The notes beneath the pieces are model-generated. The model was given only the letters and a program-made list of their open reading frames with translations, was not told the origin of the DNA and searched no databases. A DNA stretch of 64,000 bases from Leucoraja ocellata (Eukaryota), in assembly GCA_036785375.1 (NCBI GenBank), contig JAWMAR010000070.1, positions 7,006,001 to 7,070,000 on the forward strand. The letters are read 5' to 3'. Made by a program: the position numbers and the translations under genes. Position 1 is the stretch's first letter. Every line of letters begins with the position of its first letter. This document shows, in pieces, positions 2,084-62,788 of the stretch.

Positions 2084-2107
2084 CTGAAGGGCTTGGCCAA
2101 GCAGATA

Positions 2108-7307: not shown

Positions 7308-7844
7308 TCAGTGAGAGATCATCAGCTGCATCAATAATTCACAAACCGGTCTATCACTATAATGGAGCCAAACACAGGAATACGTCCCTGTATCTTCCTC
7401 TTTTACACCTGTCAGGAGCAACGTGGCGTCCTGTTCCCAAAGGACGTTTCGTTCCACGAACTTCCAGTGAACATGAGATCCCGTATAACGCGCATGCACT
7501 CTACTATGGAAATTGGCAATTGCAACACCATCTTTTTTCCATGTAACCATGGGACTATTGTCAACGTTGGATACTTTACATGGCAACATAACAGAACCAC
7601 CCAGAGATGCAACGAGCACCTTCTTGTTAATCGTTGATAGGTGATGACTGATGGCATCAGAATCTGACTTGTCCGTGCATCTTGGAAACCGTTCATCGGT
7701 GACTTGCCGAGGGGCCCGTGCGTTCCGCCCGGCCAAGTTTGCTTCCTCTCCCCATTCTCTGGAGATCGGACCTGTTCCAGTTGCGGAGACTTGCCACACC
7801 ATCTCCACAAGGACCATGAATCCTATCCATCTCTGCAGGCCCAT
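7308..7844 (-). CDS. Secreted single V-set Ig-domain protein, copy 1 (178 aa)
   Basis: ATG at 7844 lies 4 nt after an acceptor-like ttgtttcacccacag; the track's GTG start is intronic. Signal-like MGLQRWIGFMVLVEMVWQVSA, then RNARAPR/QV. V-set marks: GGSVMLPC, VTW 13 aa later, DATLLL, EEDTGTYSC (Cys-Cys spacing 68). Stop right after the G strand, no TM. Confidence 0.85.
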   Translation of the reverse strand: MGLQRWIGFMVLVEMVWQVSATGTGPISREWGEEANLAGRNARAPRQVTDERFPRCTDKSDSDAISHHLSTINKKVLVASLGGSVMLPCKVSNVDNSPMVTWKKDGVAIANFHSRVHARYTGSHVHWKFVERNVLWEQDATLLLTGVKEEDTGTYSCVWLHYSDRPVCELLMQLMISH

Positions 7845-8425
7845 GTTCCTGTGGGTGAAACAATGGGTCACCTTATTGCAACTCAGTAGGATTCATGATG
7901 GCATTCCCTGAACCCGCCCAGAGTTGGGGAATCGAGAACCAGAGGACATCGGTTTAAGGCGAGGGGGGGGGGAGAGATTTAATGTGAAACTGAGGGGTGA
8001 CTTTTTTACATAAAGGGTGGAGGGTGTTTGGAACGAGCTGCCGGAAGAGGTAGTTGGGGCAGGTACTATCACAATGATTAAGAAACAGTTAGACAGGTAC
8101 ATTGATAGGACAGGATTAGAGGGGTAAGGGCCAAACGCAGGCAGGTGGGTCTAGTATTGATGGGGACACGTTGGTGGGCGCGGGCAAGTTGGGCCAAAGG
8201 TCTCGCTGTGACTCTATGACTCCATCACTTGTCCCACCCTGGTCATTCCTCCTTCTCCCTGGTCCTGTCTAGCAGAAGGTACAGAAGCTTGAAAGCGCGC
8301 ACCACCAGACTCAGGAACAGCTTCTTCCCCTCTGCTATCAGGCTTCTGAACTGGGGGAACAGTGAACAGAGACAATCCCACCCCCATCACTCACAGACAC
8401 TTGAAGGATCCACAGGGTTGGTTAC

Positions 8426-8730
8426 CAGCTCCGGAGTCTCCACACAGGGTGACGGGGTCGGTCTTGTTCTCATCTCCTGCCATCGCTCGCTCCTTTTATA
8501 CCGACTCCCGGCTTCTCCTGCCCCTCATTGTCTGCCCTCACGTACATTCAACCAATCACTGCCTCCCACGGAGCATTGGCCGGAGTCAGCCGCGACCTCT
8601 CCACCCTCTGCCAAACGTGTCGTTGCATCAGCCGTTAACGTTTAACAAGAACAACGTCATCCCAGCTGCCAGCGGCCAACCAGGCGCCCCACACATCCTG
8701 CTTGTGTCTCCACCACGTCTCGTTCTGGTC
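8426..8730 (-). promoter_or_regulatory. Promoter and non-coding exon 1 of Ig copy 1
   Basis: TATAAAA on - at 8500-8494; CCAAT motifs at 8552-8556 (+) and 8579-8575 (-); donor CTG/GTAACC after 8426; matching acceptor at 7850-7849. The block is near-identical upstream of all six copies. Confidence 0.65.
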
Positions 8731-9105
8731 AACCCATCGCAGTTGAGGCAGAAACTATCCCAACGTTTAAGAAACAGCTATACAGGAACAGGTATAGGTC
8801 AGATTTGGAGGGAAATGGACCAAACGTGGACAGGTGGGACTAGTGTAGCTGGGACATGTTGTCCAATGTGGGCAAGTTGGGCCGAAGGGCCTGTTTCCAT
8901 GCTGTATCACTCTATAACTGTATTACACTATGACATTAAATCTTCTGCTTATCGAATCCACACACAAGATTAGTTGTTCAGCCAGAGCTGATCACACTTC
9001 TCGGCATCTGCATAAAATGGTGTCTGTCTTGTCGCGTCTTGTGCTGCTTGTTCGTGGTGGTGGAGAGATTGGTGTAAACGTGAAACATTAAATAAATAAT
9101 GATAA

Positions 9106-13515: not shown

Positions 13516-14052
13516 TCAGTAGATTTCAAAGACTGCCAGCGAGACGCATTCTTCACAAGTCCTATTATCTTGAGTGGTCCAGACACAGGTATATAACCCT
13601 TCATCTTTCTGTTCTACGCCTGCCAGGATCAACGAGGCGTCATGTATCACATGGATATCATTATGCTTGAAACGCCAGCGGCCCTCCGATCGCTTCGCTA
13701 TGTCAGGAGTTTTAAGACCATACCTGGCAATCGTAACATTGTATTTTCTCCAAATGACATTCAAGAGTTGATGGTATTCGCGGGATACTTTACAGGGCAG
13801 CGTAATGATACTACCCAGAGCTGCATCGAGCATATGCTCGCTAAATGATGCACCGTGATCACTGTCAGAATCTGACTCGTCCGTGCATCTTGGAAACCGT
13901 TCATTGGTGACTTGTCGAGGGGCCCGTGCGTTCCGCCCGGCCAAGTTTGCTTCCTCTCCCCATTCTCTGGAGATCGGACCTGTTCCAGTTGCGGAGACTT
14001 GCCACACCATCTCCACAAGGACCATGAATCCTATCCATCTCTGCAGTCCCAT
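13516..14052 (-). CDS. Secreted single V-set Ig-domain protein, copy 2 (178 aa)
   Basis: First 48 aa identical to copy 1. GSIITLPC...VIW...DASLILAGV..KDEGLYTC. Carries a fifth Cys (TCEEC). Confidence 0.85.
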   Translation of the reverse strand: MGLQRWIGFMVLVEMVWQVSATGTGPISREWGEEANLAGRNARAPRQVTNERFPRCTDESDSDSDHGASFSEHMLDAALGSIITLPCKVSREYHQLLNVIWRKYNVTIARYGLKTPDIAKRSEGRWRFKHNDIHVIHDASLILAGVEQKDEGLYTCVWTTQDNRTCEECVSLAVFEIY

Positions 14053-14634
14053 GTTCCTGTGGGTGAAACAATGGGTCACCTTATTGCAACTCAGTAGGAT
14101 TCATGATGGCATTCCCTGAACCCGCACAGAGTTGGGGAATCGAGAACCAGAGGACATCGGTTTAAGGCGAGGGGGGGGGGGAAAGATTTCATGGGAAACT
14201 GAGGGGTGACTTTTTTACACAAAGGGTGGAGGGTGTTTGGAACGAGCTGCCGGAAGAGGTAGTTGGGGCAGGTACTATCACAATGATTAAGAAACAGTTA
14301 GACAGGTACATTGATAGGACAGGATTAGAGGGGTAAGGGCCAAACGCAGGCAGGTGGGTCTAGTATTGATGGGGGCACGTTGGTGGGCGCGGGCAAGTTG
14401 GGCCGAAGGTCTCGCTGTGACTCTATGACTCCATCACTTGTCCCACCCCGGTCATTCCTCCTTCTCCCTGGTCCTGTCTAGCAGAAGGTACAGAAGCTTG
14501 AAAGCGCGCACCACCAGACTCAGGAACAGCTTCTTCCCCTCTGCTATCAGGCTTCTGAACTGGGGGAACAGTGAACAGAGACAATCCCACCCCCATCACT
14601 CACAGACACTTGAAGGATCCACAGGATTGGTTAC

Positions 14635-14940
14635 CAGCTCCGGAGTCTCCACACAGGGTGACGGGGTCGGTCTTGTTCTCATCTCCTGCCATCGCTCGCT
14701 CCTTTTATACCGACTCCCGGCTTCTCCTGCCCCTCATTGTCTGCCCTCACGTACATTCAACCAATCACTGCCTCCCACGGAGCATTGGCCGGAGTCAGCC
14801 GCGACCTCTCCACCCTCTGCCAAACGTGTCGTTGCATCAGCCGTTAACGTTTAACAAGAACAACGTCATCCCAGCTGCCAGCAGCCAACCAGGCGCACCA
14901 CACATCCTGCTTGTGTCTCCACCACGTCTCGTTCTGGTCA
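14635..14940 (-). promoter_or_regulatory. Promoter/exon 1 of Ig copy 2
   Basis: Same conserved block; TATAAAA on - at 14709-14703. Confidence 0.6.
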
Positions 14941-22910: not shown

Positions 22911-23447
22911 TCAGTGAGAGATCATCAGCTGCATCAATAATTCACAAAACGGTCTATATGGATACTTGATCCAAACACAGGAATACGTCCCTTTATCTTC
23001 CTCTTTTACACCTGTCAGGAGCAACGTGGCGTCCTGATTCCTAATGACGTCTCGTTGCACGAACCTCCAGTGAACATCAGATCCGTAATAAAACGCTAAC
23101 GCTCTCTCATGGAAATGGGCAATTTGAACACCATCTTTATTCCATGTAACCGTGGGACTATTGTCAACGTTGGATACATTACATGGCAACGTAACAGAAC
23201 CACCCAGAGATGCAACGAGCACCTTCTTGTTAATCGTTGATAGGTGATGACTGATGGCATCAGAATCTGACTTGTCCGTGCATCTTGGAAGCGTTTCATT
23301 GGTGACCTGTCGAGGGGCCCGTGCGTTCCGCCCGGCCAAGTTTGCTTCCTCTCCCCATTCTCTGGAGGTCGGACCTGTTCCAGTTGCGGAGACTTGCCAC
23401 ACCATCTCCACAAGGACCATGAATCCTATCCATCTCTGCAGTCCCAT
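22911..23447 (-). CDS. Secreted single V-set Ig-domain protein, copy 3 (178 aa), closest to copy 1
   Basis: Collinear with copy 1 without indels, 28 aa differences. GGSVTLPC...VTW...DATLLL..EEDKGTYSC. Confidence 0.85.
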   Translation of the reverse strand: MGLQRWIGFMVLVEMVWQVSATGTGPTSREWGEEANLAGRNARAPRQVTNETLPRCTDKSDSDAISHHLSTINKKVLVASLGGSVTLPCNVSNVDNSPTVTWNKDGVQIAHFHERALAFYYGSDVHWRFVQRDVIRNQDATLLLTGVKEEDKGTYSCVWIKYPYRPFCELLMQLMISH

Positions 23448-24028
23448 GTTCCTGTGGGTGAAACAATGGGTCACCTTATTGCAACTCAGTAGGATTCATG
23501 ATGACATTTCCTGAACCCGCCCAGAGTTGGGGAATCGAGAACCAGAGGACATCGGTTTAAGGCGAGGGGGGGGGGAAAGATTTAATGGAAAACTGAGGGG
23601 TGACTTTTTTACACAAAGGGTGGAGGGTGTTTGGAACGAGCTGCCGGAAGAGGTAGTTGAGGCAGGTACTATCACAATGATTAAGAAACAGTTAGACAGG
23701 TACATTGATAGGACAGGATTAGAGGGGTAAGGGCCAAACGCAGGCAGGTGGGTCTAGTATTGATGGGGACACGTTGGTGGGCGCGGGCAAGTTGGGCCGA
23801 AGGTCTCGCTGTGACTCTATGACTCCATCACTTGTCCCACCCCGGTCATTCCTCCTTCTCCCTGGTCCTGTCTAGCAGAAGGTACAGAAGCTTGAAAGCG
23901 CGCACCACCAGACTCAGGAACAGCTTCTTCCCCTCTGCTATCAGGCTTCTGAACTGGGGGAACAGTGAACAGAGACAATCCCACCCCCATCACTCACAGA
24001 CACTTGAAGGATCCACAGGGTTGGTTAC

Positions 24029-24335
24029 CAGCTCCGGAGTCTCCACACAGGGTGACGGGGTCGGTCTTGTTCTCATCTCCTGCCATCGCTCGCTCCTTTT
24101 ATACCGACTCCCGGCTTCTCCTGCCCCTCATTGTCTGCCCTCACGTACATTCAACCAATCACTGCCTCCCACGGAGCATTGGCCGGAGTCAGCCGCGACC
24201 TCTCCACCCTCTGCCAAACGTGTCGTTGCATCAGCCGTTAACGTTTAACAAGAACAACGTCATCCCAGCTGCCAGCGGCCAACCAGGCGCCCCACACATC
24301 CTGCTTGTGTCTCCACCACGTCTCGTTCTGGTCAA
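24029..24335 (-). promoter_or_regulatory. Promoter/exon 1 of Ig copy 3
   Basis: Same block; TATAAAA on - at 24103-24097. Confidence 0.6.
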
Positions 24336-28749: not shown

Positions 28750-29113
28750 CGAGATATGTACTCCGAGGAATTTATAGCTGGAGACGCGCTCCACCTCAGT
28801 CCCGTTTATATGGATGGGGGTATGACTGCCTCCTCTGGTCTGCCTGAAGTCAACAATAATCTCCTTCGTCTTTTTGGAGTTGAGGACAAGGTTATTGTTG
28901 GCACACCAGGCTGTCAGGTGCTGGATCTCCTCCCTGTAGGCTGACTCATCGTTGTCGCTGATCAGTCCTACTACCGTGGTATCGTCAGCAAACTTAATAA
29001 TGGCGTTGGATCCGTACTTTGGGATGCAGTCGTGGGTGAAGAGGGAGTAGAGGAGAGGGCTGAGCACACAGCCCTGTGGCACCCCGGTGTTCAGTGTTAT
29101 AGTGGAGGAGGTG
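28750..29113 (-). mobile_element. Rex1/Babar-type LINE RT fragment
   Basis: [18 protein letters not shown]...[24 protein letters not shown]. Confidence 0.8.
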
Positions 29114-41284: not shown

Positions 41285-41384
41285 TCACTCTGATAAAGGG
41301 AACGACAAACACATTGGATTATTGTTCGTGATAAGCTCATTGTATAAAAGAGGCAGCTCAGGTCTAGTCAGCAACAGTAACAAG
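41285..41384 (+). promoter_or_regulatory. Chitinase core promoter
   Basis: TATAAAA at 41343-41349; two TGATAA (GATA) motifs at 41291 and 41329; ATTGG at 41313. Confidence 0.7.
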
Positions 41385-41409
41385 ATGGCAAAGCTACTTC
41401 TTGGAACAG
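41385..41409 (+). CDS. chia: Chitinase coding exon 1 (signal peptide)
   Basis: ATG GCA AAG CTA CTT CTT GGA ACA G/gtaaga, about 40 nt after TATAAAA. Confidence 0.85.
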
Positions 41410-44400
41410 GTAAGAGCCTTTTGTTGTTTAATTCCTTTTGATATTGGAATGCTTTTTGAAAGAATCAGGTTTAGACATTAAATGATGAGAACAGGTTAAA
41501 TTGTTTCTCAAGTTTTATTATAAAGGTGTCTGAAGGGTCTCGACTCTATCTAACCTTAATCTCCGGAGATGCTGCCTGACCCGCTGTGATACTCCAGCAC
41601 GTTGTGAAATATCACCTATCCATGTTCTCCATAGATGCTGCCTGACCCGCTGAGTTACTCCAGCACTCTGTGAAACGTCACCTATCCATGTTCTCCACAG
41701 ATGCTGCCTGACCCGCTGAGTTACTCCAGCACTCTGTGAAACGTCACCTATCCATGTTCTCCACAGATGCTGCCTGACCCACTGAGTTATGGTGCAGCAG
41801 CATCTATGGAGCTAAGGAAATAGGCAACGTTTTGGGCAGAAACCCTTCTGGAAATAGGCAACGTTTCGGGCCGAAACCCGGAAGGGTTTCGGCCCGAAAT
41901 GTTGCCTATTTCCTTAGCTCCATAAATGCTGCCTGACCCGCTGAGTTACTCCAGCACTCTGTGAAACGTCACCTATCCATGTTCTCCACAGATGCTGCCT
42001 GACCCGCTGTGATACTCCAGCGCTTTGTTTCTATCTTTGGTGTAAATCAACTTCTGCAGTTCGTAGTTTCTTAATATTTTGTATTTTCCAACGGACCCGA
42101 AACGTCACCCATTCCTTCTCTCCGGAGAAGTTGCCTGACCTGCTGAATTACTCCAGCTCTCTGTGAAAATCTTCAGAGACATTTAGAAAATCACGAGGGG
42201 CAGAGATATGAAGGATGGTCTCTGCCTTTCCCCAGGGAAGGGGAGTCTAAAACTACAGGGCATTGACACTGAATGTGAGAGGGCAAAGATTTAAAGGTGA
42301 ATCCAGGGGCAACTGGGACAAGCTTAGATGGGGCATTTGATCAGCATGGACAAATTGGGCCAAAGGGCCTGTTTCTGCGTTGTGTGACTATGACTATGAC
42401 TCTAACCTGTTGCCCAGAGGGTGGTGAGTATATGGAACGATCTGCCAGAGGAGGCAGATGAGGCAAGTATAATAACATTTAAAAGATATTTGGATGAGTA
42501 CATGGATAGGAAAGGTTTAGTTTAGAGATACAGTATGGAAACAAGGCCCTTCGGCCCATCGAGTTCACGCCGACCATTGTTCAGCCTTTCACACTATTTC
42601 CATGTTATCCCACTTATCCAACGACTCCCTACACACGAGGAGCAATTTTACAGAGGGACAATTAACCTTCAACCCCTCACATCTTTGGGATTTGGGAGGA
42701 AACCAGAGCTCCTGGAGAAAACCCACTTGGTCACAGGGGGAGGGAGTTAAGAGTGTTATTCTCATATGTACCAGAAACAGAACAATCAAATTTATACTAG
42801 AATAGCAAGCATAACAGGGTTGATGTACAAATTCCACACACGTTCAACACCCATAGTCAAGATCAAACCTGGGTCTCTGGCGCTGTGAGGCAGCAACTCT
42901 ACCACTGCTCCACCGTGCCGCCCACAAGATAGATCTTCATAGTTTCCCAACCACTTACATAACAGTGTCATTGTGTAGAGGCCGTAATACAGCCAAGGTT
43001 TCATAATTTCATACGTGCTAGGAGCAGAATTAGGCCATTCGGCCCATCAAGTGCACTCTAGCCACACAATCATGGCTGATCTACCTTTCCCTCTCAACCC
43101 CATTCTCCTGTCTTCTCCCCGTAACACCTGATTTATTACGGTTTGACATAATCCTAACACGCTGTTCTCTGTTTTCTGTTCCAGCGGTGGTCTTACTGGC
43201 CTGCCTGCAACTGGGTGAGTCTTTGTGCATTTGCAGCCTTGCTTTGCTTTGCTTTGTGTGAGTGCCACAGAGACATTGTCCTGACCACCCTGTCTCTCCC
43301 TTGCCCAGGCTCTGCCTACAGGCTGGTGTGTTACTTCACCAACTGGGCACAGTACAGACCAGGAGAGGGTAAATACATGCCCCAGAGCGTGGACCCTTGC
43401 CTCTGCACGCACATCATCTACGCCTTCGCTGGAATGAAGAGCAATCAGATCGCCACCTACGAATGGAACGACCCAAAACTCTACCAGGAGATCAACAGCC
43501 TGAAGAACAAGTACAGTTGCTGAATAAGTACTAACGCCTCTGTCCCACTTTCCCGAGTTACTCACGAATTCTCCCGAGTTTTCCCCGTTTATTCAAACTC
43601 AGACAATGTCCGTAGCGAGTCCGTAGAGCCGTAGGTACTCGGGGCATCAGGTAAGTCGGGACGTTTTTTCAGCATGTTGAAAGATGTCCACGAGTAAACA
43701 AAAATATCCCCGAATACCATCGGCTGGCATCTCCGAGTTTGAATCAAGGGGAAAACTCGGGAGAATTCGGGAGTAACTCGGGAAAGTGGGACGGGCTTAA
43801 CCTTGTTTCTCAAATGCCGGGCAATGTTGCGATGTTTACATTGTCCAGTTTAGTTCATTGTCACCTGTACTGATACAGTGAAACGTTTTTGTTGCTTGCT
43901 AACCAGTCACTGTATTGGATATTCCCCAAATCCATATTCCATAACCCATATTCCACAGTTAATTTAGTTTAGTTTATTATTGTCACGTGTACCATGGTAC
44001 AACAAAAAGCTTTTTGTTGCGTGCTAACTAGTCGGCGGAAATACTGTACATGGTTACAATCAGGCCTTCCACACTGTACAGACACAGGGTCAAGGGTATA
44101 ATGTTTAGTGCAAGATAAAGTCCAATGACGTCTGATTAAATATAGTCCGAGGGTCTCCAATGAGGTAGATGGGAGGCCAGGGCTGCTCTCTAGTTGGTGA
44201 GAGGACGGTTCAGTGGGATAAGCCCACCGTATGGGTTAGGTGATGCCTAACTTCTCAGAGACAGCTTGGTGGAGACAAATTGCCCTGCTGATTTGGGTCT
44301 GATTGGGTTAAATTTAACCATGAATATTCCCTGGTGCTTGCTGCAAGCGAAGGGACATCCAGTGTTTAATGAACAGTCCATTTCAAACTCTTCGAAATGG

Positions 44401-47400
44401 TCGATCTAAGTGAACAAGTCGTTTGGAAGCTTATGTGGCAAGAATCCACCTGTTGTATGTACCGGGTGGCACAGTGTCGCAGCGGGTAGAGCCACTGCCT
44501 CACCGCGCCAGAGACCTGGGTTCGTTCCTGACCTCGGGCACTGTTTGTGTGGAGTTTGCACGTTCGCCATAAGACAGTGAGGGTTTTCTCTGGATTACCG
44601 GTTTTCTCCCACATTCCAAAGGGTTTCCAGGTTAATTGGCCTCTACAATTTGCCCCAAGTGCATAGGGAGTGGATGAGAAAGTGGGATGAAATAGCACTG
44701 GTGTGAACGGGTGATCGATGGTCAGCGGGGTCTTTGACATGACCCTGTTACACATCCATTTGTTGAAGGTTTTCTCATCTCATCCACCTCCCCTGTCTGA
44801 AAGGTGACTTGGTTTAGGGGGATATTCAGGAGAAAGCTATTGGACAGGCCAACAGAATCATTGTCATAGATTGAGGAAATAGGCCCTTCAGCCCAGAGTG
44901 AGACTGGCCCATTGCTTATGAAGCCTTCTTGCATAAACTTGCACCTAATTTTCTGTGACGCCCTTGAGATCCAGACTAAGGTAAATCCCCTCAACTAAAC
45001 GTAACACCAAAGGGGCGAAAAAAAACAGAAGATCCAGAAGTTCCTGAGCAGTTCTGAAAATGTTTTGTTGTTCTAAACATCATTCTAAAACCACATTTTG
45101 TCTATTTTTTTAAGGAATTCAAACCTCAAGACTCTGCTGTCCATTGGAGGCTGGAACTTTGGCACCCAGAAGTAAGATGGAAACTTTTACATTAGCATTA
45201 GATTAAAAAAAGTTATTTTCCAATTGACTGTGATATGGAATTAATATTGAAAGACACAAAGTGCTGGAGTAACTCCTCAGTAACTCAGCCTGAAGAAGGG
45301 GCTTGACCCGAATCGTCACCTATCCAAGTTCTCTAGAGATGCTGCCTGACCCTCTGATTTACTCCAGCACTTTGTGTCTTTTCTTTTTGTAAACCAGCAC
45401 CTGCAGTTCGATGTGCCCGACGTAAACAGTGGGTGTGTTTGGTAATTTTGCCATAAATGCCATTTGTGCCGTTTCATGCCTTTTTTGATAATTTTACCAA
45501 GATGCCTTTTTCACGATCGAGCCTTTTTTTGCTGTTTTGCTAAAAGGTCATGCTATTTTGTCTAGTTGTACCATGATTACAATGACATTTTCTATATTAA
45601 CAAGTTAATACTAATGTTATTATTAAAGTGTTAAAATAGTATAAATTACAAGAAGATTTTCACCACCGGGATGAAACTGGGGGCGCCACTGTCATTCGTG
45701 CCGCTGCCTGCTGGTTCAGTCTTCCCCAACATCTATTCATTGCTTCCAATTTTGCAAACTTCCCACAAGCTACCACTTCCCTTGAGAAAGGTGGTGAAAC
45801 GTTAGTGAATAACTTGCAGGTTTTCCACAAAGTAACTGACGATATTCGTAAATGTGGCGATGTAGGTAAAGACATACAAGGAAATTATGAGAGAGTGATT
45901 TTACCTAACAAAGATCATGAAGAAATACAAAACATAGCTAAAGTTCTCAAAGGTAATTGTAATGCACAAGGTATCGACGTGAATATAGAGTCTGTAGCTT
46001 GTTTCTGGTATGCACCAGTGACCTCAGCTGGGGTACAAATAAGTTTTTCACAACTGAAGAATATTCTGTCTGACAGACGGCATAGTTTAACACCAGATAA
46101 TTTGAAAAAATGCTAGTAATTATGTGCAACCAGGCAACTTTGGTCATTTAATGTACTATAACCTTATATTATCATTTTTAACCATATTTTGGTGGTGGAA
46201 ATACATGCCTTTTTATGTCAATAAATGCCTTTTACGTGCCTTCTTTGTAGTTTTATTATGCCTTTTTGCCTGCCTATTTCAGTTTTTTAGTGGCTAAACA
46301 TCCTGTAATGATATACACAGAGATAAATATCGAGGGGATAAGTTTGCAGTGAACTGTTTCAGGAGTATTATTAAACAGAGCAGTTTGCAAATTGTAATTT
46401 GAACAATATAGGATATTGCTTGCCAAAAAGTAAAATAACATAATTTTACGAAAGAATCCTTTCAATAGTGTGTGGCACAGCGGTAGAGTTGCTGCCTTAT
46501 TGCGCTTACAGCACAAGAGACCCAGGTTCGATCCTGACTACGGGTGCTGTCTGTACGGAGTTTGTACGTTCTCCCTGTGACCTCCTGGGTTTTCTCAGAG
46601 ATATTCAGTTTGCTCCCACACTCCAAAGACGTACAAATTTGTAGGTTAATTGGATGTTATAAATGTAAATTGTCCCTTGTGTGTGTAGGATAGTGTTAGT
46701 GAGCGGAGATCGCTGGTCGGTGCAGAGTGGGGGGGGCCGAAGGGCATGTTTCCACGCCGTATCTCTGAACTAAACGTCATTTTCAGAAATAATAATTTCA
46801 CATGAAACTTCGGAGAATAGCAGGAGAAAGGAGTAATTTTTTAACCACGAACATTTAATGAAGGCGAGGGTGAATCTGTACATGATAGGATATAACAGCA
46901 GATTCACTGGGTCACTGAGTACAGCGGCCGTTACTACAGTTCCTTGTGTCTCCGGCACATTTAATTTCTAACTCCTCTCCCCACATCCATCCCTCCTGCA
47001 GATTCACCGCGATGGTCGCCTCATCAGGAACTCGGCAAATCTTCATCAAGTCAGTCATCGCCTTCCTGAGAGGGTACGGCTTTGACGGTCTGGACATCGA
47101 CTGGGAATATCCTGGATCTCGAGGAAGTCCTCCCGTTGACAAGCATCTCTACACTGTCCTGGCTCAGGTGCGGTCAAGTACATCTCACTATGAGTTTCTT
47201 TAAAATAAATGGGCCAAACTCAGGCCAAACCTATCCTTTATCTCCACAGATGCTGCCTGACCCGCTGAGTTCTCCAGCACTCTGTGAAACGTCACCTATC
47301 CATGTTCTCCACAGATGCTGCCTGACCCGCTGAGTTACTCCAGCACTTTGTGGGACTAGTGTAGATGGGACATATTGGTCGGTGTGGGCAGGTTGGGCCA

Positions 47401-50400
47401 AAAAGTCTGTTTCCACGCTGCATAACTCTATGACTTGAAAATGTATCCAATAAATGTAACCTTATTGTCAAGATCACCAAGGACAGATTTTCACAAAAGA
47501 TTTTAAGAATTCAGAAATTAAGAATTTAATAAAGTTTGAACCAAGCACCATTTTGAGTGGGGATTAAAAGGTTTCTTCCCCACTCTTGGTTGACACGGTG
47601 GTGCAGCGGTAGAGTTGCTGCCCCACAGCACCAGAGACGCGGGATCGATCCTGACCATGGATGCTGTCTGTACGGAGTTTATACGTTCTCCCTGTGACCT
47701 CAGGTGCTATTGATTCCTCCCACACTCCAAATATGTGTGGGTTTGTAGGTTAATTGGCTTCAGTAAATTGTCCCAAGTATGTAGGATATAACTACAGTGA
47801 AAGGGTAATCGCTGATCGGCATGGACTCGATGGACTCGATGGGCCTGTTTCCAAGCTGCATCTCTAAACCAAACTGAACTAAAATCGAAATTGACACAAA
47901 GTGTTGGAGTAACTCAGCGGGTCAGGCAGCATCTCTGAGGAAAGAGGATAGGCGATGCTTTGGGTCGGGACCCTTTCTAAGACGAGACTTGACCTCTTGC
48001 TAAAGGAGCCCTCGATCTCTCTGACCCACAGGAGCTGATGGCTGCCTTCGAGGCCGAAGGGAAAAGCGCAGGAAAGCCACGACTGCTGCTCTCGGCTGCC
48101 GTTGCTGGTGGGATGAGCAACATCGATACTGGCTACGAGGTTCCTCAGCTCAGCCAGTGAGTGTCCTTCCACATGCAAAGAAACCCAACTTTTCCTGTGG
48201 GCGTTTAGCGAGTTTGACGTCGTATTTGAACTAGTTTTTCATGGCTCCACAATTTCAATGGTGGGAGCTTCCAGCATGGTGATTGAGATCCATCCACAAC
48301 CCTAATGCATTCAATGCCTTCATCAGTCGGGGCATTGAGTGTGAGATTCAGGAAGCCAACTTGCAGCTCTGTAGGTCTTTAGCCAGGAGGCATTTAGAGC
48401 ATTGCGTGCAGGTCTGGTCGTCTCCATTACAGGAAGCATGTGGAGGCTTTAGAGACGGTTCAGAGGAGAGTTACCAGAGCGCTGCTTGGATTAGAGGGGA
48501 TTAGCTACAGGGAGAGGTTCGACAAATTTACAATGTTTCCTCTGGAACGTCAGAGGTTGAGGAGAGACTTGATAGAAATTTATAAAATCACTAGAGGCAT
48601 AGATAGTGTAGACAGTCAGAACCTGCTGGGGTGGTGGTTGAAACAGATACGTTAATGGCATTTAAAAGACCTTTAGATAGGCACATGATCATGCCAGGCA
48701 TGGAGGGATGTTGGTGATATGCAGGTAGATAAGTGATGGACTTGGCATCATGTTCAAGTTTAAAGGAGATATGCATGTTTTTTTTTTACAGAGATAGTGG
48801 TGGGTGCCTGGAACGCGCTGCCAGGGGTGGTGGTGGAGGCAGATACGATAGTGGTGTTTAAGAGGCTTGTAGATATACAAGGAATGGAGGGATATGGATC
48901 ACGTGTAGACAGAGGAGATGAGTTTATCTTGCCGCCATGTTTGGCACGGACATTGTGGGCAGAAGGGCCTGTTCCTGTGTTGTACTGTTCTGCATTCTGA
49001 TGTTAATTTGGTGCATGGAGTATCAGGGTGACCCGTCTCCTCTCTTGCAGGGTAGTTGACTTCTTCAACGTGATGACCTACGATTTCTATGGTCCCTGGA
49101 GCCACGTTACTGGAGAGAACAGCCCCCTCTATGCCCTGCCTAATGACAAGGATTACACCAACACCCACTTCAATGTGGTAAGTGCTCAAGAAAAATAAAT
49201 CCTGCTCAACTTTTTCAACTCCTCTCTCCGAATTAATAAACCCGTTTTGTCAAGTCCATATAACTGGTCCATACACCATGGGGAGCAGACTGTGGAGTTG
49301 CATCACAACTAGGTTTGGGAACAGCTCTGAGCCCAAGACCACAAGAAATTGCAGAGAGTTGTGGATGGAGCCCAGTCCATCACACAGACCACACTCCCCA
49401 CCATTAACTCCATCTACACTTCACGCTTCCTCAGAAAAGCAGCCAACAGAACAAAGACTTGTCCCACCCCAGTCATTTCTCCTTCACCCTGGTCCTGTCT
49501 AGCAAAGGTACAGAAGCTTGGAAGCACGCACCACACCACCAGACTCAGGAACAGCTCCTTCCGCTCTGCTATCAGGCTTCTGAATGGTCCTTCCATAGGC
49601 TAGGGTACTGTCCGATTCACCTCTACCCCATTGCGGACATTGGACTTTGTCTCTGGAACTGATGCACTACGATGCTGAGAACTATATTCTTCACTCTGTA
49701 TCTTCCCCTTTGTTCTACCTATTGTACCCGAGATTGATTTTACTTCGGAGTCACGTGAGTGATTCCGTGAAGAACCCGTTCAGCACGCATGCGCGGCATT
49801 ACGTCCAGCAGAGCAACAGCGGCAGGCGGGAATCGGGCTCTCCCGCTATGGAGGTGAAAGAACGGACCGTCAGGTAAGCTGACGTCGGTTTCCTTCGCAG
49901 GGAGCCTTCTGCTGTCCGGCAGAGAAGAAAGGCTCTGCAACAAACCTGTCCCCCGCTCGACTCCACGGAGGAGCCTTCCTTCAGGGGGGGCAGCTGGAAG
50001 TAACGCAACGGAGGCGTCCAGCCGGTGGCTCCGACTTATCGGACGGGGACGTCTCTCCACCCAGGCGGGGGAGAGACAGCCGCCTGAGTCGCATGGAGCG
50101 GCTCTTGGAGCAGGAGCTTGGGGGTAATAACAAACCGTCGACACCATGTCAGCATCCCTCTGAACATCCACTAAAAAACAGCACTTGTCCAGCATCAAAA
50201 AATGGGAGAAGTACTGCTTGGATACAGGGACCACCTACTCAACCGCTATAGTGACCAACGTACTGGAATTCCTGGCGAACCTTCACCACGATGAAGGACT
50301 TCAGCTACAGAGCCATCAACACAGCTAGAATTGCCCTGCCTGTCTATTTAAAACCAGCTCCAGGACAACAGGCCATGGGGTCCCACCAGCTGGTGGTCAA

Positions 50401-53400
50401 ACTAATGAAGGGTATTTACAACTCTAACCCCTAGACCAAGGTACACCCATATATGGGATGTCAGTGTGGTCCTGACATACCTCAGGGGATGCCCACCAGC
50501 CAGACCCCTCAACCTGAAACCATCTATGCTCAAAACACTCAGGTTGATGGCACTTGTAGCTGCACAGAGGGTCCTGTCACTACACCTATTGCGATTGGAC
50601 ACCATGCTCACAGCTCCAGACCAGGTCTCTGTCGTTATCCAGGGAATGATCAAACAGAGCAGACCAGGAACACCTAATCCAGTCGTGGAATTCCGGGCTT
50701 ACCCGCCAGAAACACCGTTATGTGCCATGACCCTATTATCCTACATAGACACAACCAAAAATTCGAGGGAGATGAAAAGCCTTGTGGGTCAGTCATAAAA
50801 AACCTTATGGTCGGGTGACGAGCCATTTCGAGATGGCTCAAGCAGGTGCTAAAAGCTGCTGGGATAAAAACTAACATGTACAAAGTTCATTCCATCAGGG
50901 CAGCATCCACGTCAACGGCTAAAAGAATGGACATGCCTATAAACCACATCCTGGCTACAGCAGGATGGTGGGGGGTAAGACCGTTCAGAAATTTTATAAT
51001 AAGCCGTTGGCAAAACCTGTTTTATTTGCAGGAAAGATTTTACAGACTGCAAATATTTAATTTTAGCCCAGGGGAACAATTTAATTTCTTTGTTGTTATT
51101 GTTAAAAAAAAAAAAAAATGCCATTGTGTTTTTCTACAAACAGATTCATTGGTTGATTACGATAACACACTTCCTCCCTCAAAGACTTCGGCAGTGATGT
51201 AGTAATAACTGTTACACGGTTTGAAATCACAAAGCTTTGAAATCTTCATGGAATCACTCACGTGACTCCGAAGTAAAATTGTAAGATTAAACGAGAACTT
51301 ACCAGTTTGAAGTTTGATCTGTATTTTATGAGGAGTTACTATGAGGGATTACGTGCCCTCCGCTCCCACCCTCAATAATATGGGTCAAATTCATAAACTG
51401 ATGTCTCCTTATCTTTACTATGTTTACTTCAATAACTGTGTCTATCTGTGATTCCACACCGCTGCTTTGAAGTATGCCGCGCATGCGTGCTGAACGGGTT
51501 CTTCACGTAATCCCTCATCGTAACGCCTCATAAAATACAGATCAAACTTCAAACTGGTAAGTTCTCGTTTAATCTTACTATTTGATTGTATTCATGTACG
51601 GTATTATCTGATCTGTTTGGAGGCTTTTCACTGTGCCTCGGTACACGTGATAATAATAAACCTAAACGTAAACATGAGCCTTTGATGCCAACTGTGTCCC
51701 TGCAGGAATACGCCATGAACTACTGGAAGAGCAAGGGGGCTCCAGTGGAGAAGTTGAATGTGGGTTTCCCCACCTACGGACACACATTCAAACTGACCTC
51801 GTCCAGCACGGCTGTGGGTGCCCCAGCAGGAGGCCCTGGTCCAGCCGGCAAATTCACCCACCAAGCCGGCTTCCTGGCCTACTATGAGGTACTGTACCTA
51901 CCGACCAATCCAACCGCGTGGCTCTTTACTCAATGTTATCTTCCAATCCAATACTGAATAACCACACACAACATAGATGGACACAAGGTGCTGCAGCCTG
52001 AGGATGGATCTCCACCCGAAACATCGCACACCCATGTTCTCCGTTCCCCTCCTCAAGAGATCCCCATTTCCTTTCTATCCTCCCCTTCCTCTTTGCCCTC
52101 CCCACTATCTCCTTCTCACCACATCCCTCCCTCCGGCTTTATATCTCTCTCCTCCACTTTCTGGACATATCGCTCTTTCCTCTCTTTATATATCTTTCTC
52201 TCCTCTTTCTTTTTTTCTCTTTCATGTATTTCTCCTCAACATCTCTCTCTACTCTTTCTTCCTCTCTCCACATCTCTCTTCCCCTCTCCTCTCAGTATCT
52301 GACACTATTTCGTCTCCTGTTCCCCTCCAGCCTTTGTCACTATCGCCACCCACCACCCTTGGAGTCAAATGGTTACCCCTCAGATTTAATAGACAATAAG
52401 TGCAGGAGTAGGCCATTCGGCCCTTCAAGCCAGCACCATTCCTATTAAATCTTTCTCCCTCACCCATGTCCTCTGGTTCTCGATTCGCCGTCTCTGCGTT
52501 TGCGTTTACCTGATCGGTTCCTCTCATGATTTTTTTCCAACTCGACAAGATTGGTCCCTAACATCTCCGTCTCTGGGCAGATCTGCGGGTTCCTGAACGG
52601 TGCCACCAGCGAATGGAACGCCCCACAAGACACCCCGTACGCCTTCAAGAATGGAATATGGGTCGGCTATGACAACGTCAAGAGCTTCGGAGACAAGGTA
52701 CATCTGACCATTGAAGTTCCACCCTTCCTGCGTGAGCCACCGTAGTCTCGTTTATCTCAATATCTACTGCAGAGTTTCCAACAGTGAACTCCAGAATTAT
52801 GCTTCAAAATCCTTAGAATCTTTTGTCGTTAACATTCTGCATAAAATTTCCAGCTCACCATAAATTCATGGTGTTCGCGTGTCATGGGTTATGGGGAGAA
52901 GGGAGGAGAATGGGGTTAGGATTCACATCGGGGAAACTTGGAGTTTCTGTTTTTATTTCCCAAACCGTGCTGTGATGAATCCCGATAGAAAGCTTTCTAC
53001 AGCGCATTGTAGAAGCCATTATTGACTGAGGGATGTTGGTGTAAAGATGTGAACTGTGTCTTCCAGGTTGAGTGGCTGAAGAAGAACAACTTTGGAGGAG
53101 CTATGGTCTGGGATCTGGCTCTGGATGACTTCTCTGGTGCCTTCTGTCACCAGGGACCCTACCCCCTCATCAACACTCTGCACTCTGGCCTTGGCATCTC
53201 TGGAGGTAATGGAGATGTGCGGGACAAGTCTTTCACACAGAGGGTGATGGGTGCCTGGAACACGCTACCAGGGGGTGGTGGTGGAGGCAGATAGTGGTAG
53301 GACTAGGTATGTAGCTACGTTTTCCACACAGAGGGTGGTGGGTATAGAGAACAAGCAACTGTTACTCCAGCACATTGTGTCTCTTTTTATAGACCAGCAT

Positions 53401-53897
53401 CTAGGGTAGATGGGAGGTCGGGACCCCGCTGGAGTTGGTGAGAGGGAGGTTCAGTGGCATAATCCCATTGACTGGGATATTCACACAGTTCCTTGTTATT
53501 ATGGGGAGAAGGCAGGAGAATGGGGTTGAGAGGGAGGGAACCATGATTGAATAGTGGAGTAAACCCAATGGGTTAAATCGCCTAATTCTCCTATGAATTT
53601 AGGAGAACTTATAACAAACTGTGTTTCTTTGCAGCTTGCGTCCCATCCAAGACAACATTGGCGCCGGCGGTCCCACCTACTGATGCCCCTAGTGGTGGTG
53701 GAGGCGGTGGCAGCAGCGGTGGTGGCAGCAGCGGTGGTGGAGGCAGTGGCTTCTGTAAGGGCAAAGCCAACGGTACCTTCGCTGATCCCAAGAACAACAA
53801 CAAGTTCTACCAGTGCGTCAATGGTCGGACCTACCTGAAGAGCTGTGCCACTGGATTAGTCTTTGATTCATCCTGTAAATGTTGCAACTGGGCTTAA
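41385..53897 (+). CDS. chia: Acidic mammalian chitinase-like GH18 chitinase with CBM14, 477 aa; join(41385-41409,43185-43214,43309-43510,45115-45171,47002-47167,48032-48156,49051-49177,51706-51888,52581-52697,53067-53205,53635-53897)
   Basis: All introns GT-AG and in phase, total 1434 nt. Signal [49 protein letters not shown], catalytic [24 protein letters not shown], Gly/Ser linker, Cys-rich CBM14 ending CKCCNWA. chia versus chit1 orthology needs a phylogeny. Confidence 0.93.
41568..42022 (+). repeat. 66-bp tandem repeat related to the Penelope 3' end, with a central palindrome; short array also at 47249-47350
   Basis: Unit gatgctgcctgacccgctgagttactccagcactctgtgaaacgtcacctatccatgttctccaca at 41568, 41634, 41700, 41766, 41925, 41991. 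Confidence 0.85.
43185..43214 (+). CDS. chia: Chitinase coding exon 2
   Basis: ttctgttccag/...[11 protein letters not shown]/gtgagt, 30 nt. Confidence 0.85.
43309..43510 (+). CDS. chia: Chitinase coding exon 3
   Basis: [17 protein letters not shown]...[13 protein letters not shown]...LKNK. Confidence 0.92.
43535..43797. mobile_element. PIF/Harbinger-type MITE
   Basis: About 70-bp TIRs (gtcccactttcccgagttactc...), TAA on both sides. Confidence 0.75.
45115..45171 (+). CDS. chia: Chitinase coding exon 4
   Basis: [23 protein letters not shown] bounded; too short for the ORF track. Confidence 0.9.
45427..46305 (+). mobile_element. hAT-like DNA transposon remnant
   Basis: [31 protein letters not shown] resembles the hAT C-terminal dimerisation motif (PxTSxxVERSFS); CAG...CTG imperfect ends; no clear TSD. 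Confidence 0.6.
47002..47167 (+). CDS. chia: Chitinase coding exon 5 (catalytic DxxDxDxE)
   Basis: [17 protein letters not shown]. Confidence 0.95.
48032..48156 (+). CDS. chia: Chitinase coding exon 6
   Basis: [42 protein letters not shown]. Confidence 0.9.
49051..49177 (+). CDS. chia: Chitinase coding exon 7
   Basis: [27 protein letters not shown]...FNV/gtaagt. Confidence 0.9.
49738..51583 (+). mobile_element. Internally deleted DIRS1-like tyrosine-recombinase retrotransposon in chitinase intron 7
   Basis: YR motifs AAQRV.SL and HSIRAAS...AGW (frameshifted); inverted termini (about 49768-49800 vs 51474-51506); internal complementary region 51243-51355 matching both extremities; TTT ends. 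Confidence 0.85.
51706..51888 (+). CDS. chia: Chitinase coding exon 8
   Basis: [28 protein letters not shown]...GFLAYYE. Confidence 0.92.
52581..52697 (+). CDS. chia: Chitinase coding exon 9
   Basis: [39 protein letters not shown]. Confidence 0.92.
53067..53205 (+). CDS. chia: Chitinase coding exon 10
   Basis: [38 protein letters not shown]. Confidence 0.92.
53635..53897 (+). CDS. chia: Chitinase coding exon 11 (Gly/Ser linker and CBM14)
   Basis: GGGGSS repeats, then FCKGKANG...[30 protein letters not shown]-stop. Confidence 0.92.
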
Positions 53898-58991: not shown

Positions 58992-59507
58992 TCACTGCAC
59001 TGCCAGCTTGGTGTTTAGTTTACACGGCACGTTATTAACCAGCCAAGCGCAGGAATATTTCCCAGCATCTTCCTCTTCCAGCCCCGTCAGGACCAACGAG
59101 GCGTCCCGTGTCTCAACCACGTTTGTTTTCATGAACTTCCTGCGTCCGGGTGACCCTGGATATTGCGCACCGTTCCTGTCAGTAAACACGGCGATCGTAT
59201 CTTTTCCTTTTGTCCACAGCACCACAAATTTATCGGCTGCACCGTCTTCTTTGGGCATTTTGCAGGATAGTTGAGCAGAACCACCCTTACTGGCCGTCAC
59301 CTCTGTCCATCTCATCTTATCCGGAGCGAGGTTAACAGCGCATTGTGGAGTTGGATTTTCGGTGACTTGTCGAGGAGCCCGTGCGTTCCGCCCGGCCAAG
59401 TTTGCTTCCTCTCCCCATTCTCTGGAGATCGGACCTGTTCCAGTTGCGGAGACTTGCCACACCATCTCCACAAGGACCATGAATCCTATCCATTTCTGCA
59501 GTCCCAT
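58992..59507 (-). CDS. Secreted single V-set Ig-domain protein, copy 5 (171 aa)
   Basis: Same leader (1 aa change). GGSAQLSC...VLW...DASLVLTGL..EDAGKYSC..TKLAVQ-stop. AATAAA on - at 58925-58920. Confidence 0.85.
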   Translation of the reverse strand: MGLQKWIGFMVLVEMVWQVSATGTGPISREWGEEANLAGRNARAPRQVTENPTPQCAVNLAPDKMRWTEVTASKGGSAQLSCKMPKEDGAADKFVVLWTKGKDTIAVFTDRNGAQYPGSPGRRKFMKTNVVETRDASLVLTGLEEEDAGKYSCAWLVNNVPCKLNTKLAVQ

Positions 59508-60083
59508 GTTCCTGTGGGTGAAACAATGGGTCACCTTATTGCAACTCAGTAGGATTCATGATGACATTCCCTGAACCCGCCCAGAGTTGGGGAATCGAGA
59601 ACCAGAGGACATCGGTTTAAGGCGAGGGGGGGGAAGATTTAATGGGAAATGAGGGGTGACTTTTTTACACAAAGGGTGGAGGGTGTTTGGAACGAGCTGC
59701 AAGAAGAGGTAGTTGAGGCAGGTACTATCACAATGATTAAGAAACAGTTAGACAGGTACATTGATAGGACAGGATTAGGGGGGTAAGGGCCAAACGCAGG
59801 CAGGTGGGTCTAGTATTGATGGGACACGTTGGTGGGCGCGGGCAAGTTGGGCCGAAGGTCTCGCTGTGACTCTATGACTCCATCACTTGCCCCACCCCAG
59901 TCATTCCTCCTTCTCCCTGGTCCTGTCTAGCAGAAGGTACAGAAGCTTGAAAGCGCGCACCACCAGACTCAGGAACAGCTTCTTCCCCTCTGCTATCAGG
60001 CTTCTGAACTGGGGGAACAGTGAACAGAGACAATCCCACCCCCATCACTCACAGACACTTGAAGGATCCACAGGGTTGGTTAC

Positions 60084-60350
60084 CAGCTCCGGAGTCTCCA
60101 CACAGGGTGACGGGGTCGGTCTTGTTCTCATCTCCTGCCATCGCTCGCTCCTTTTATACCGACTCCCGGCTTCTCCTGCCCCTCATTGTCTGCCCTCACG
60201 TACATTCAACCAATCACTGCCTCCCACGGAGCATTGGCCGGAGTCAGCCGCGACCTCTCCACCCTCTGCCAAACGTGTCGTTGCATCAGCCGTTAACGTT
60301 TAACAAGAACAACGTCATCCCAGCTGCCAGCGGACAACCAGGCGCCCAAC
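60084..60350 (-). promoter_or_regulatory. Promoter/exon 1 of Ig copy 5
   Basis: Same block; TATAAAA on - at 60158-60152. Confidence 0.6.
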
Positions 60351-62272
60351 ACATAGCGCCGTAAGACAACAACACCACCACTGCGCCACTGTGCTGCCCT
60401 TGCATTGGCCTCTTGCACAAGTTATAAAAGTATAAGATTCAGATAGGGTAGACAGTCAGAACCAATGTTCCATGGTGAAAATGCCAAGGACTAGAGGGCA
60501 ACTCGTCAGGGTGAAAAAGGAAAAAAAGGTTACGATGTGCGGGGCATGTCTTCTTGGTGGGTGCTTGGAACACACTTGGTTGAAGCAGATACAATAGTTC
60601 GGAGGCTTTATCTGAAAAATCTCATGGATATACAGAGAATGGAGAATTATGGTTCACATGCAGGCAGAGGAGATTAGCTGAACTAGGCATCATGTTCAGC
60701 ACGGATCTTGTGGGCCGAAGGGCCTGTTCCTGTGCTGTTCCATGTTCTATGTTACATCATCTTCTCAATCACATCTTGAGAAGAACGTTTTCCAGAGGTG
60801 CCCTGGTACCACCAGTGTGACATTCATTGTATCTGCTGCAGTCAATGAGTGTGTTGTGTAGACAGCCAGAGGAGAAGATGGGATTTATGTGGAGTTTCAT
60901 TTTGTAATCATTATTTATTTAATGTCATAGTGTAATAGAGTCATAGAGTGATACAGCGTGGAAACAGGCCCTTCGGCCCAACTTGCCCACACTGGCCAAC
61001 ATGTCCCAGCTACACTAGTCTCACCTGCCTGTGTTTGGTCCATATCCCTCCAAACCTGTCCTCTCCATGTACCTGACTCACTGTTCCTTAAACATTGGGA
61101 TCTAAATGTTGCCTCACCAACACAAGATGACCTCCCAACCTCTATACTCCATACTGTGACTGATGAAGGCCAAAGTACCAAAAGCCTTTTTGACCACCGT
61201 ATCTACCTGCAACTGCATCTTCAAGGAACCATGTACCTTCTCTCATAGATCCCTCTGCTCTACAACATTCCCCAGAGCCGGACTATTCACTGTGTAGGTC
61301 CTGCACATGTTAGACTCCCCAAAACACAACACCTCACATTACTCTGTATTAAATTCCATCAACCGTTCCTCAGCCCAACTGGCCAATATTTCAGGATGCT
61401 GCTGCAATTTTTCACAACCATCTCCACTATCTGCAAAACCGCCTACTTTTGTGTCATAGAAACATAGAAAATAGGTGCAGGAGTTGAGGCCATTCAGCCC
61501 TTCGAGCCTGCACCGCCATTCAATATGATCATGGATGATCATCCAACTCAGTATCCTGTACCTGCCTTCTCTCCATACCCCCTGATCCCTTTAGCCACAA
61601 GGGCCACATCTAACTCCCTCTTAAATATAGTCTTTACTTTTGTCCCTGTTTTGTTCCTGACAACATTCCCCGTTATTTTTGTTCCTGTTCTCAACATCTG
61701 CGGACTCCTGATTTTCCACATGTTGTTCCGTCCCCGTGTGGTCATGGACAATGTTGGACACAGCTCATAGAAGCCGGCGATGTTGCCCGTAGTGAGCAAA
61801 AGTTGCACAAAGTTCACACCCAACTCAATGCTGGCGTACAAAGAATCACTCACACCGGCTGTCTTCAAGAGAGTTTATTTCCATTAATGATACATTTACC
61901 AATGCAAGCACGATCTGTCCCATTGCACTACATTTGCCCCATATCCCCCTAAACCTTTCCCTGTCCCAAGTGTGTATTAAATATTGTTACAATTCCCACC
62001 CCACCAGACAGTTCTATAAACCCACCGCCCCCTGAGTGAAAATGTTGCCCCTCAGGTTCCTATTAAATCTTGCCCCTCTAACCTTAAACTTATGTCCCCC
62101 TGGTTCTTGATTCCCGTACCCCAGGTAAAAGATGTTTTGTGTTCACCCCTCTATTCCCCTCATGATGAATTAAGTGACTACAATATAGAATGCTGTTGTT
62201 GGCCTAAGTGTGTGAAGTTTATAATGATGGATGTTATTGTGTGTTTGTGCTGTCCTGCCACTGCCTGTTGTT

Positions 62273-62788
62273 TCACTTCACTGTCAGCTTGATATTTAGT
62301 CTACATTCCTTTTGGCCAGTGAACCAAGCGCAGGAATATATCCCAATATCAGTCTCGAGTAAACCTATGATGACCAACGAGGCATCCCGTGTCCCATCCA
62401 CGTTTGTATTCATGAACCTCCAGCGGCCGACCCCCCCTGGATAGGTCGCACCATTCCCTTTAGTAAACACGCCCAGTGTCCCGCTCCCTTTACTCCAGGT
62501 GATCACAAAATTCGCGGGTCCAGTCTTCCCTGTGGGTACTTTACAGGGTAGCGTAGCAGAACCACCCCTGCGTGCCGTCACATCCGTGTATTTCATCTTG
62601 TTCGCAGCTGGCTTAGCACCGCATTCTGGAGAACTTTGTTTTTTGACTTGTCGAGGCTCTCGTGCGTTCCACCCGGGCAAGTTTGCTTCCTCTCCCCATT
62701 CTCTGGAGATCGGACCTGTTCCAGTTGCGGAGACTTGCCACACCATCTCCACAAGGACCATGAATCCTATCCATCTCTGCAGTCCCAT
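62273..62788 (-). CDS. Secreted single V-set Ig-domain protein, copy 6 (171 aa), sister of copy 5
   Basis: Same leader (WNAREPRQV variant). GGSATLPC...ITW...DASLVIIGL..TDIGIYSC..IKLTVK-stop. Confidence 0.85.
   Translation of the reverse strand: MGLQRWIGFMVLVEMVWQVSATGTGPISREWGEEANLPGWNAREPRQVKKQSSPECGAKPAANKMKYTDVTARRGGSATLPCKVPTGKTGPANFVITWSKGSGTLGVFTKGNGATYPGGVGRWRFMNTNVDGTRDASLVIIGLLETDIGIYSCAWFTGQKECRLNIKLTVK

Follow-up and report, generated by a model that had tools for sequence, protein, structure and literature searches.

A homogenised promoter-leader cassette beside divergent nectin-type V domains in a skate gene array

This report concerns 64,000 nucleotides of Leucoraja ocellata, hereafter the window (positions 7006001-7070000 of contig JAWMAR010000070.1, here C70, within the 3.44-Gb assembly GCA_036785375.1), and six minus-strand genes in it that each encode a small protein with a signal-like leader and a single V-set immunoglobulin (Ig) domain. 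These genes belong to a batoid array in which one homogenised cassette of promoter, first exon, intron and leader precedes divergent V domains of nectin type that, judged by codon models, are under positive, diversifying selection. The explanation favoured here, which we hold to be somewhat more probably right than wrong, is that the array supplies one secretory cell type with soluble, germline-encoded binders or decoys; their ligands are most likely microbial or parasitic, and variable. An earlier note, made from the letters of the window alone, had read the six genes as a non-rearranging, germline-diversified repertoire of soluble binders. The non-rearranging, germline-diversified, single-V and anchorless character of the genes, together with diversifying selection, is borne out by sequence features, while secretion, cleavage and ligand remain predicted.

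The array and its cassette

All six open reading frames (ORFs) of 171-190 aa that had been reported were found intact at their places on the minus strand. Genes 1 and 3 (7308..7844 and 22911..23447, 178 aa each) belong to the largest subfamily, F0, the former reading as signal, pro-segment and V domain. Gene 2 (13516..14052, 178 aa) has five cysteines within its mature part, gene 4 (38536..39108, 190 aa) ends in a short hydrophilic tail with AATAAA 195 nt past the stop, gene 5 (58992..59507, 171 aa) has AATAAA 66 nt past the stop, and gene 6 (62273..62788, 171 aa), of subfamily F4, has a basic mature domain with an isoelectric point (pI) of 9.9. The shared start of 48 residues is as uniform as had been described, with 0, 0, 1, 3, 1 and 3 differences from copy 1 across genes 1 to 6, a likeness well past what chance would give. 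The abrupt break after R-x-x-R/QV is present in most of them; gene 4, however, reads RAYW/QV and has its R-x-x-R three residues earlier. The mature domains are indeed variable, but genes 1 and 3 are members of one subfamily (84% identical), and the variation consists of subfamilies plus selected sites rather than of six unrelated domains.

By reading 664 kb around and including the window, and by counting copies through the leader as the earlier note had suggested, 57 array copies were found across C70 6.99-7.52 Mb (about 525 kb), 26 on the plus and 31 on the minus strand, together with two dispersed ones; an extra 100 kb of flank held no family member. Fifty of the 57 are intact and encode 36 distinct proteins with 33 distinct mature domains, and one of the seven scored as non-intact is probably intact as well, having an open frame and a start misplaced in scoring. 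At 78% identity, 40 distinct coding sequences fall into eight subfamilies, and the identity of mature domains among distinct sequences has a median of 37.5% and a minimum of 25%. The array may be partly double-counted: C70 6985005-7312929 and 7313130-7522320, astride a gap of 200 N, match at 99.4-99.7% over 43-45 kb, and because the halves beside the gap are near-identical the second may be an uncollapsed haplotype, or else a recent duplication with copy-number variation. The gene counts of the two blocks differ, with 32 in the first half and 25 in the second, and the first half alone holds 28 intact genes and 22 distinct mature domains. The two dispersed copies are diverged and lie on C16 at 1.775 and 1.786 Mb; one is intact (179 aa) and one frameshifted, and both have a shorter pro-segment and a third CCAAT box.

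Pieces of the family were also found by themselves. At 29113..29258 of the window (minus strand) stands the upstream half of a promoter copy, broken off by other sequence before the TATA box and with no gene behind it, and promoters, or promoters with exon 1, that lack a coding exon occur on C70 near 7260900, 7351400 and 7512300; these orphan copies are signs of cassette turnover. A ninth V lineage, on C70 at 7119380, 7207103 and 7446113 (plus strand), is represented only by copies truncated at 149 aa, which end before the second canonical cysteine.

Each gene opens with a pair of CCAAT boxes and, about 655 nt above the ATG, a TATA box. A first exon of about 90 nt with a GTGAGT donor follows, then an intron of one of two types (about 545 or 586 nt) whose acceptor lies 4 nt before the ATG, and finally a single coding exon. 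In the window these 5' cassettes, all on the minus strand, occupy 7849..8730 for gene 1 (intron 7849-8394, exon 1 at about 8395-8483, TATA at 8500, with the CCAAT boxes and an element of endoplasmic reticulum stress response element (ERSE) type upstream of it), 14057..14939 for gene 2 (intron 14057-14603, exon 1 14604-14692, TATA 14709), 23452..24333 for gene 3 (intron 23452-23997, exon 1 23998-24086, TATA 24103), 39113..39994 for gene 4 (intron 39113-39658, exon 1 39659-39747, TATA 39764), 59512..60388 for gene 5 (intron 59512-60052, exon 1 60053-60141, TATA 60158) and 62793..63714 for gene 6, whose intron is of the 586-nt type (62793-63378; exon 1 63379-63467, TATA 63484). It had been claimed that leader and V domain lie in one exon, and this is so: signal peptide and V domain share one open frame, and the sole intron precedes the ATG. 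The further upstream exon and intron of each gene had escaped that description.

Little-skate (Leucoraja erinacea) RefSeq models splice the same two exons and start at an ATG 17 nt past the TATA box, which gives a 31-residue N-terminal extension. Such start was rejected. The usual TATA spacing places the transcription start further downstream than 17 nt, and the ATG is probably upstream of it; moreover, the frame of the extension is broken in both C16 copies, and the extension of the relative from Narcine, described below, is unrelated. Because the frame is broken on C16, exon 1 is read as probably non-coding. In the promoter, a perfect CCAAT-N9-CCACG, noticed after the fact, stands on the reverse strand in 56 of the 57 copies and is kept on C16 with change confined to the spacer, whereas 22 of 20000 random resamples hold one. 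It equals the ERSE consensus, bound by NF-Y and ATF6, as given in the accessible part of the source (PMC5890977).

Compared between subfamilies, the promoter has a median nucleotide identity of 98.4%, exon 1 of 100%, the intron of 98.3% and the leader of 95.7% (dS 0.05), whereas the mature region stands at 54.5% (dS 0.60, dN 0.62) and the 3' flank at 40%. The identity starts about 230 nt above the TATA box and drops within one or two codons after residue 48. The leader belongs to a promoter-exon-intron-leader cassette of about 1 kb in which silent and intronic sites are homogenised too, and protein constraint alone therefore cannot explain its identity. The intron types do not track the V subfamily, which points to gene conversion: the 586-nt type of gene 6 recurs, at 99% identity, in a subfamily whose mature domain is 28% identical to that of gene 6, whereas close relatives of this gene have the 545-nt type. 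Two further signs of conversion come from outside the array. By its V domain, a protein from Rhinoraja falls with one skate subfamily (support 100/97), yet its first 34 residues show a mean of 4.2 differences from the copies here, compared with 0.66 within this genome; and the promoter of the C16 copy has drifted to 88-93% identity, its exon 1 to about 90%. Compared in this manner, the invariant leader appears to reflect conversion as well as protein constraint.

The mature V domain

The protein runs from a signal-like N-terminus through a pro-segment of about 25 residues and a PR/Q or similar boundary to a V domain that ends after strand G. R-x-x-R occurs in all 50 intact genes, in 40 of them in the form R-x-x-R/[QK][VG]; none of the 50 has R-x-[KR]-R, the optimal motif for furin. 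The signal-like N-terminus is found in three genera, and the Narcine boundary keeps PR/Q alone. All six window proteins pass the Pfam V-set cut-off in HMMER (E 8e-11 to 3e-7), as their first assignment implied, and the V-set hallmarks Cys(B), Trp(C), D-x-G-x-Y-x-C(F) and V-type strand order are present. The pI ranges from 5.0 to 10.0 among subfamilies, the members of F4 being basic (9.2-10).

Two extra cysteines, passed over at first reading, are kept throughout the 50 intact genes. In all 28 aligned rows, Narcine included, the four cysteines and the V core do not vary. From this 28-row alignment, AlphaFold2 modelled gene 6 as a V-type sandwich with V-type strand order and a pLDDT of 85.6. In the model, a strand or bridge takes in residues 8-9, with the first extra cysteine, and strand G holds the other one; a second disulfide, from the N-terminal cysteine to that of strand G, is our prediction from it. 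The absence of a transmembrane (TM) segment was confirmed, with no 19-mer above a Kyte-Doolittle (KD) value of 1.69 past residue 30 in any of the 50 intact genes. So was that of a recombination signal sequence (RSS): none of the six window genes has an RSS-like motif at its 3' end, and two loose matches occur among all 57.

Selection on the mature domain was assessed with codon site models in our own implementation, by using 18 sequences of F0 and 11 of F4. For F0, the comparison of M2a with M1a gave a 2dL of 87.9 (p 8e-20), with an omega of 14 on 26% of codons, and for F4 a 2dL of 23.3 (p 9e-6). Tree-free counts in F0 were 89 non-synonymous and 16 synonymous, with p values of 0.006-0.058 depending on how sites are counted, and the pooled pairwise dN/dS within subfamilies was 2.3, from pairs that are not independent. 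Recombination, in a simple test, did not reach significance (p 0.24 for F0, 0.055 for F4). The flagged sites, in gene 1 numbering, are 98, 99, 101, 108, 111, 114, 117, 119, 121, 135-137, 160, 161, 163, 164 and 167; they fall in the BC loop, strands C, C' and C'', the DE loop and the F-G region, and their alternation suggests one outward face. These models argue that the mature domains are under positive, diversifying selection.

The relatives of the family are few. A profile search with the six proteins returned seven, namely six 'uncharacterized' little-skate proteins (LOC1297089xx) and one from Rhinoraja; about ten little-skate RefSeq loci are among the matches. A full scan with HMMER, over 1.84 billion representatives, brought one more true member, XP_069798310 of Narcine bancroftii, automatically named nectin-1-like, which has the signal, the pro-segment, PRQV, the four cysteines and the early stop, and because of this member the family spans skates and electric rays. 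High-scoring multi-domain matches from lungfish, axolotl and teleosts were rejected as sums over many weak V domains; their best single domain scored 44 bits, and that of Narcine 132. When the Narcine protein was used as the only query, it matched nothing but itself, and the ESM Atlas returned generic V-set clusters only, one of them named OX-2-like. The family is thus far known only from batoids, with relatives that are all uncharacterised or automatically named. It had not been recognised as a named family, and none was matched by the features tested or found in the literature search, which returned no description of it and left most subscription papers outside its scope; the main text of a shark skin-mucus proteome, in its accessible part, has neither 'nectin' nor 'V-set' (PMC10707392).

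The domain is of the V-set, but of the nectin/PVR type rather than like that of antibodies: the J motif FGxG is found in strand G of none of the 50 intact genes, and the best single-domain match in the PDB is PVR D1 (E 4e-14), followed by JAML, CD226, MXRA8 and nectin-2, with antibody chains lower and no CD300, TREM, pIgR or CEACAM chain among the 60 best. A batoid nectin D1 is 33% identical (HHalign 96.8%), motifs around strands C', D, E and F are common with the D1 of the nectin clan, and, outside the family, the closest match in this genome is to a V exon of nectin-1-like type on C1288 (L110:4995-5348). In a V-domain tree of 55 rows (10 family, 9 nectin and 36 other), the family forms one group (96/89) and joins the nectins and two unnamed rows at 85/91. 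From these comparisons, an origin from the nectin clan is likely, with moderate support.

Possible roles of the family

The proposed mechanism has four steps. An ancestral nectin-clan D1 would have lost its C2, TM and tail exons as well as the leader intron, by retroposition or exon fusion. The promoter, with its CCAAT, TATA and ERSE-type elements, would make for strong expression in a cell specialised for secretion, and a common regulation of the copies would be maintained by gene conversion together with unequal crossing-over. Cleavage after residue 21 would take off the signal peptide and a cut at PR/Q the pro-segment; what remains would be a domain of 120-145 aa that the predicted second disulfide would staple shut. 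The selected residues on the face of strands C, C', C'', F and G and in the loops would then set ligand specificity.

Several points weigh against this proposal of soluble binders or decoys. The same evolutionary pattern fits reproductive or signalling secretions. The signal peptide is moderately hydrophobic (KD19 1.04-1.3), with a Glu within its core. The overall omega of F4 is 1.0 and its tree-free test is weak (p 0.04-0.15), and conversion can inflate site-model tests. The support for the nectin affinity is modest, the nectin rows having come from a nectin-seeded search and no rows of the tree having been selected as Ig, TCR or CD300. Finally, when 5, 6 and 25% of three RNA runs with unlabelled tissues were read at 88% likeness against the coding exon of gene 6, whose leader would catch reads from any family member, 0, 1 and 0 reads were obtained; RNA reads otherwise fell only on repeats in the intron and flank of gene 6. 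Of 24 runs four were examined in all, and the fourth (X4) was rejected as RNA, its contigs being unspliced, genomic-looking and continuous across both splice sites. The RNA data show no broad expression and are compatible with expression restricted by tissue.

The array might instead encode secreted reproductive or chemical-signal proteins (of the shell gland, clasper or alkaline gland, egg jelly or seminal fluid) under sexual selection or individual recognition, a proposal that we consider possible but doubtful. The absence from the three RNA runs fits a narrow tissue, the family is so far confined to batoids, and conserved non-coding and leader sequence joined to a fast mature region is seen in vertebrate pheromone and gamete-recognition families too. 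However, the parent nectin clan is known to serve as virus receptor and immune-receptor ligand, and gene 5 differs from its little-skate orthologue (P0003) at 2 of 171 residues; therefore not every member diverges fast between species.

Two other roles for a secreted domain were weighed. The proteins could be soluble modulators of the skate's own network of nectin, CD226, CD96, TIGIT and CD200-type receptors, in line with their nectin-type D1 and with selected sites that, by strand position, lie on what is known as the nectin adhesion face. This is improbable, since 33 variants, down to 25% identity, are rarely needed for self receptors, and strong diversifying selection points to a changing ligand. 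A still smaller chance is given to a defensive effector of gland or mucus, toxin-like or antimicrobial, whose prepro form releases a directly acting domain. The prepro layout with its PR/Q boundary, the four conserved cysteines and the breadth of pI would suit such effector, and the basic F4 members could bind microbial surfaces by charge; yet no toxin or antimicrobial family was matched in Pfam or the PDB, and the fold is a recognition fold.

A reading of each gene as the first exon of a multi-domain or membrane receptor, joined by splicing to downstream C or TM exons or to chitin-binding CBM14 exons and with a stop that is mere intronic read-through, is very improbable. Ig exons often read into a stop of the next intron, the RNA data here leave splicing possible, and CBM14 exons do lie inside the array. 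Nevertheless, no conserved GT donor was found in any phase within the last 60 coding bases, where the best score is 0.9 and most are negative, and 14 of 14 distinct gene ends shown use TGA. A search by profile across the 664 kb found no leaderless Ig domain, in agreement with the reported absence of a C domain. All RefSeq models in three species end after V, and each CBM14 exon nearby either lies upstream of the V gene or runs on the opposite strand. Hardly credible at all is an array that is silent or near-neutral and owes its size to segmental duplication or to a second haplotype left uncollapsed. The match of the halves beside the gap, the ten or so little-skate RefSeq loci among the matches and the near-total lack of RNA reads might speak for it; against it stand the intact frames of 50 of 57 copies with intact promoters and splice sites, the invariance of the four cysteines and V core, dN above dS, and the gene and domain counts of one half alone.

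Chitinase setting and known systems

The V array interrupts a cluster of GH18 chitinase genes at 6.93-7.97 Mb of C70, with more than ten such genes over 1 Mb. One of these lies in the window on the opposite strand (41343..53897, plus), outside any V gene, and was traced in part: it has a candidate TATA at 41343, exons near 43310, 47000, 49050 and 51706, the catalytic DxxDxDxE at 47081, and a Gly/Ser linker followed by a CBM14 exon that ends at 53897. Its promoter and that of gene 4 stand head to head, 1.6 kb apart. A VCBP-like fusion of V to CBM14 was considered and is excluded because of the strand and order of the CBM14 exons. Shared gut expression with the chitinases is a guess, as is gut mucosa for the tissue, taken from the place of the array among gut-type chitinases. 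A bolder version of the soluble-binder proposal, unlikely though conceivable, would see a non-rearranging 'nanobody' system made from a nectin domain, driven by a stress-responsive promoter, kept by conversion, stapled by a disulfide and released into chitinase-rich gut mucus, as a jawed-vertebrate counterpart of the VCBPs with V and chitin-binding modules in neighbouring genes.

Other elements were noted in passing. Away from the chitinase cluster, C18 holds at 5.95-6.07 Mb a mirror-image gene pair with several CBM14 exons each, which are candidates for peritrophin-like genes. Young fragments of long interspersed nuclear elements (LINEs) with reverse-transcriptase ORFs occupy 379-4838, 10571-12018 and 14938-20496 of the window and have been duplicated together with V genes; PF00078 was found on the two tested, and we take the fragments to be CR1-like. 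The plus-strand ORFs 29478-30218 and 50526-51202 gave no Pfam match at E 0.01 and presumably resemble a Penelope-type endonuclease and a DIRS-type recombinase fragment.

If the favoured explanation is true, the family would represent an undescribed arm of innate immunity in cartilaginous fish, with a large, germline-encoded set of soluble V domains that is independent of RAG and descends from a clan of virus receptors. The array also shows a clean case of a conversion-kept promoter-leader cassette beside a selection-driven domain, the two meeting within a few codons. Being small, naturally free-standing and easy to express, on one scaffold that tolerates 25-40% identity, the domains make their ligand and function directly testable.

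Known V-type systems differ from the skate family in several respects. Antigen-receptor V genes (Ig, TCR and IgNAR) have an RSS and a split leader, and the skate genes have neither. According to the accessible part of the source, elasmobranch UrIg and UrIg2 are likewise non-rearranging V genes, UrIg being secreted, but they have a VJ domain, a split leader and several C domains and are linked to the MHC or an AgR complex (PMC12227049); the skate family is without J motif, C domain or split leader. Carp SITR and skate MDIR are, in what is available of PMC3031540, multigene germline V-type immune receptors of fish, of which SITR is soluble, has two domains and resembles CD300, with the CD300 motif YWCR. 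In the skate alignment YWCR is absent, and YSC/YTC-x-W is found in its place. The VCBPs of amphioxus and Ciona are also secreted, non-rearranging V-type proteins, as far as the accessible text of the sources goes, yet they fuse V to a chitin-binding domain, whereas skate V and CBM14 are in separate genes (PMC4757023, PMC4008424). Nectins themselves (P0165-P0173) have the order V-C2-C2, TM and tail; the skate family has V only, with a pro-segment and two extra cysteines.

The closest parallel is offered by the one-domain PSG-like CEACAMs of bats and horses. The portion of the source available describes a lineage-specific expansion of secreted single IgV proteins that originated from an adhesion receptor exploited by pathogens, those of bats showing diversifying selection and having been proposed as decoys (PMC5594555). 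They differ by their CEACAM descent and their separate leader, IgV and IgC exons (PMC5594555, same portion), whereas the skate family is of nectin type and has a single exon for leader and V, four cysteines, a pro-segment and a homogenised promoter cassette. As far as searched, this is an undescribed batoid family that would be analogous to the one-domain PSGs of bats and horses.

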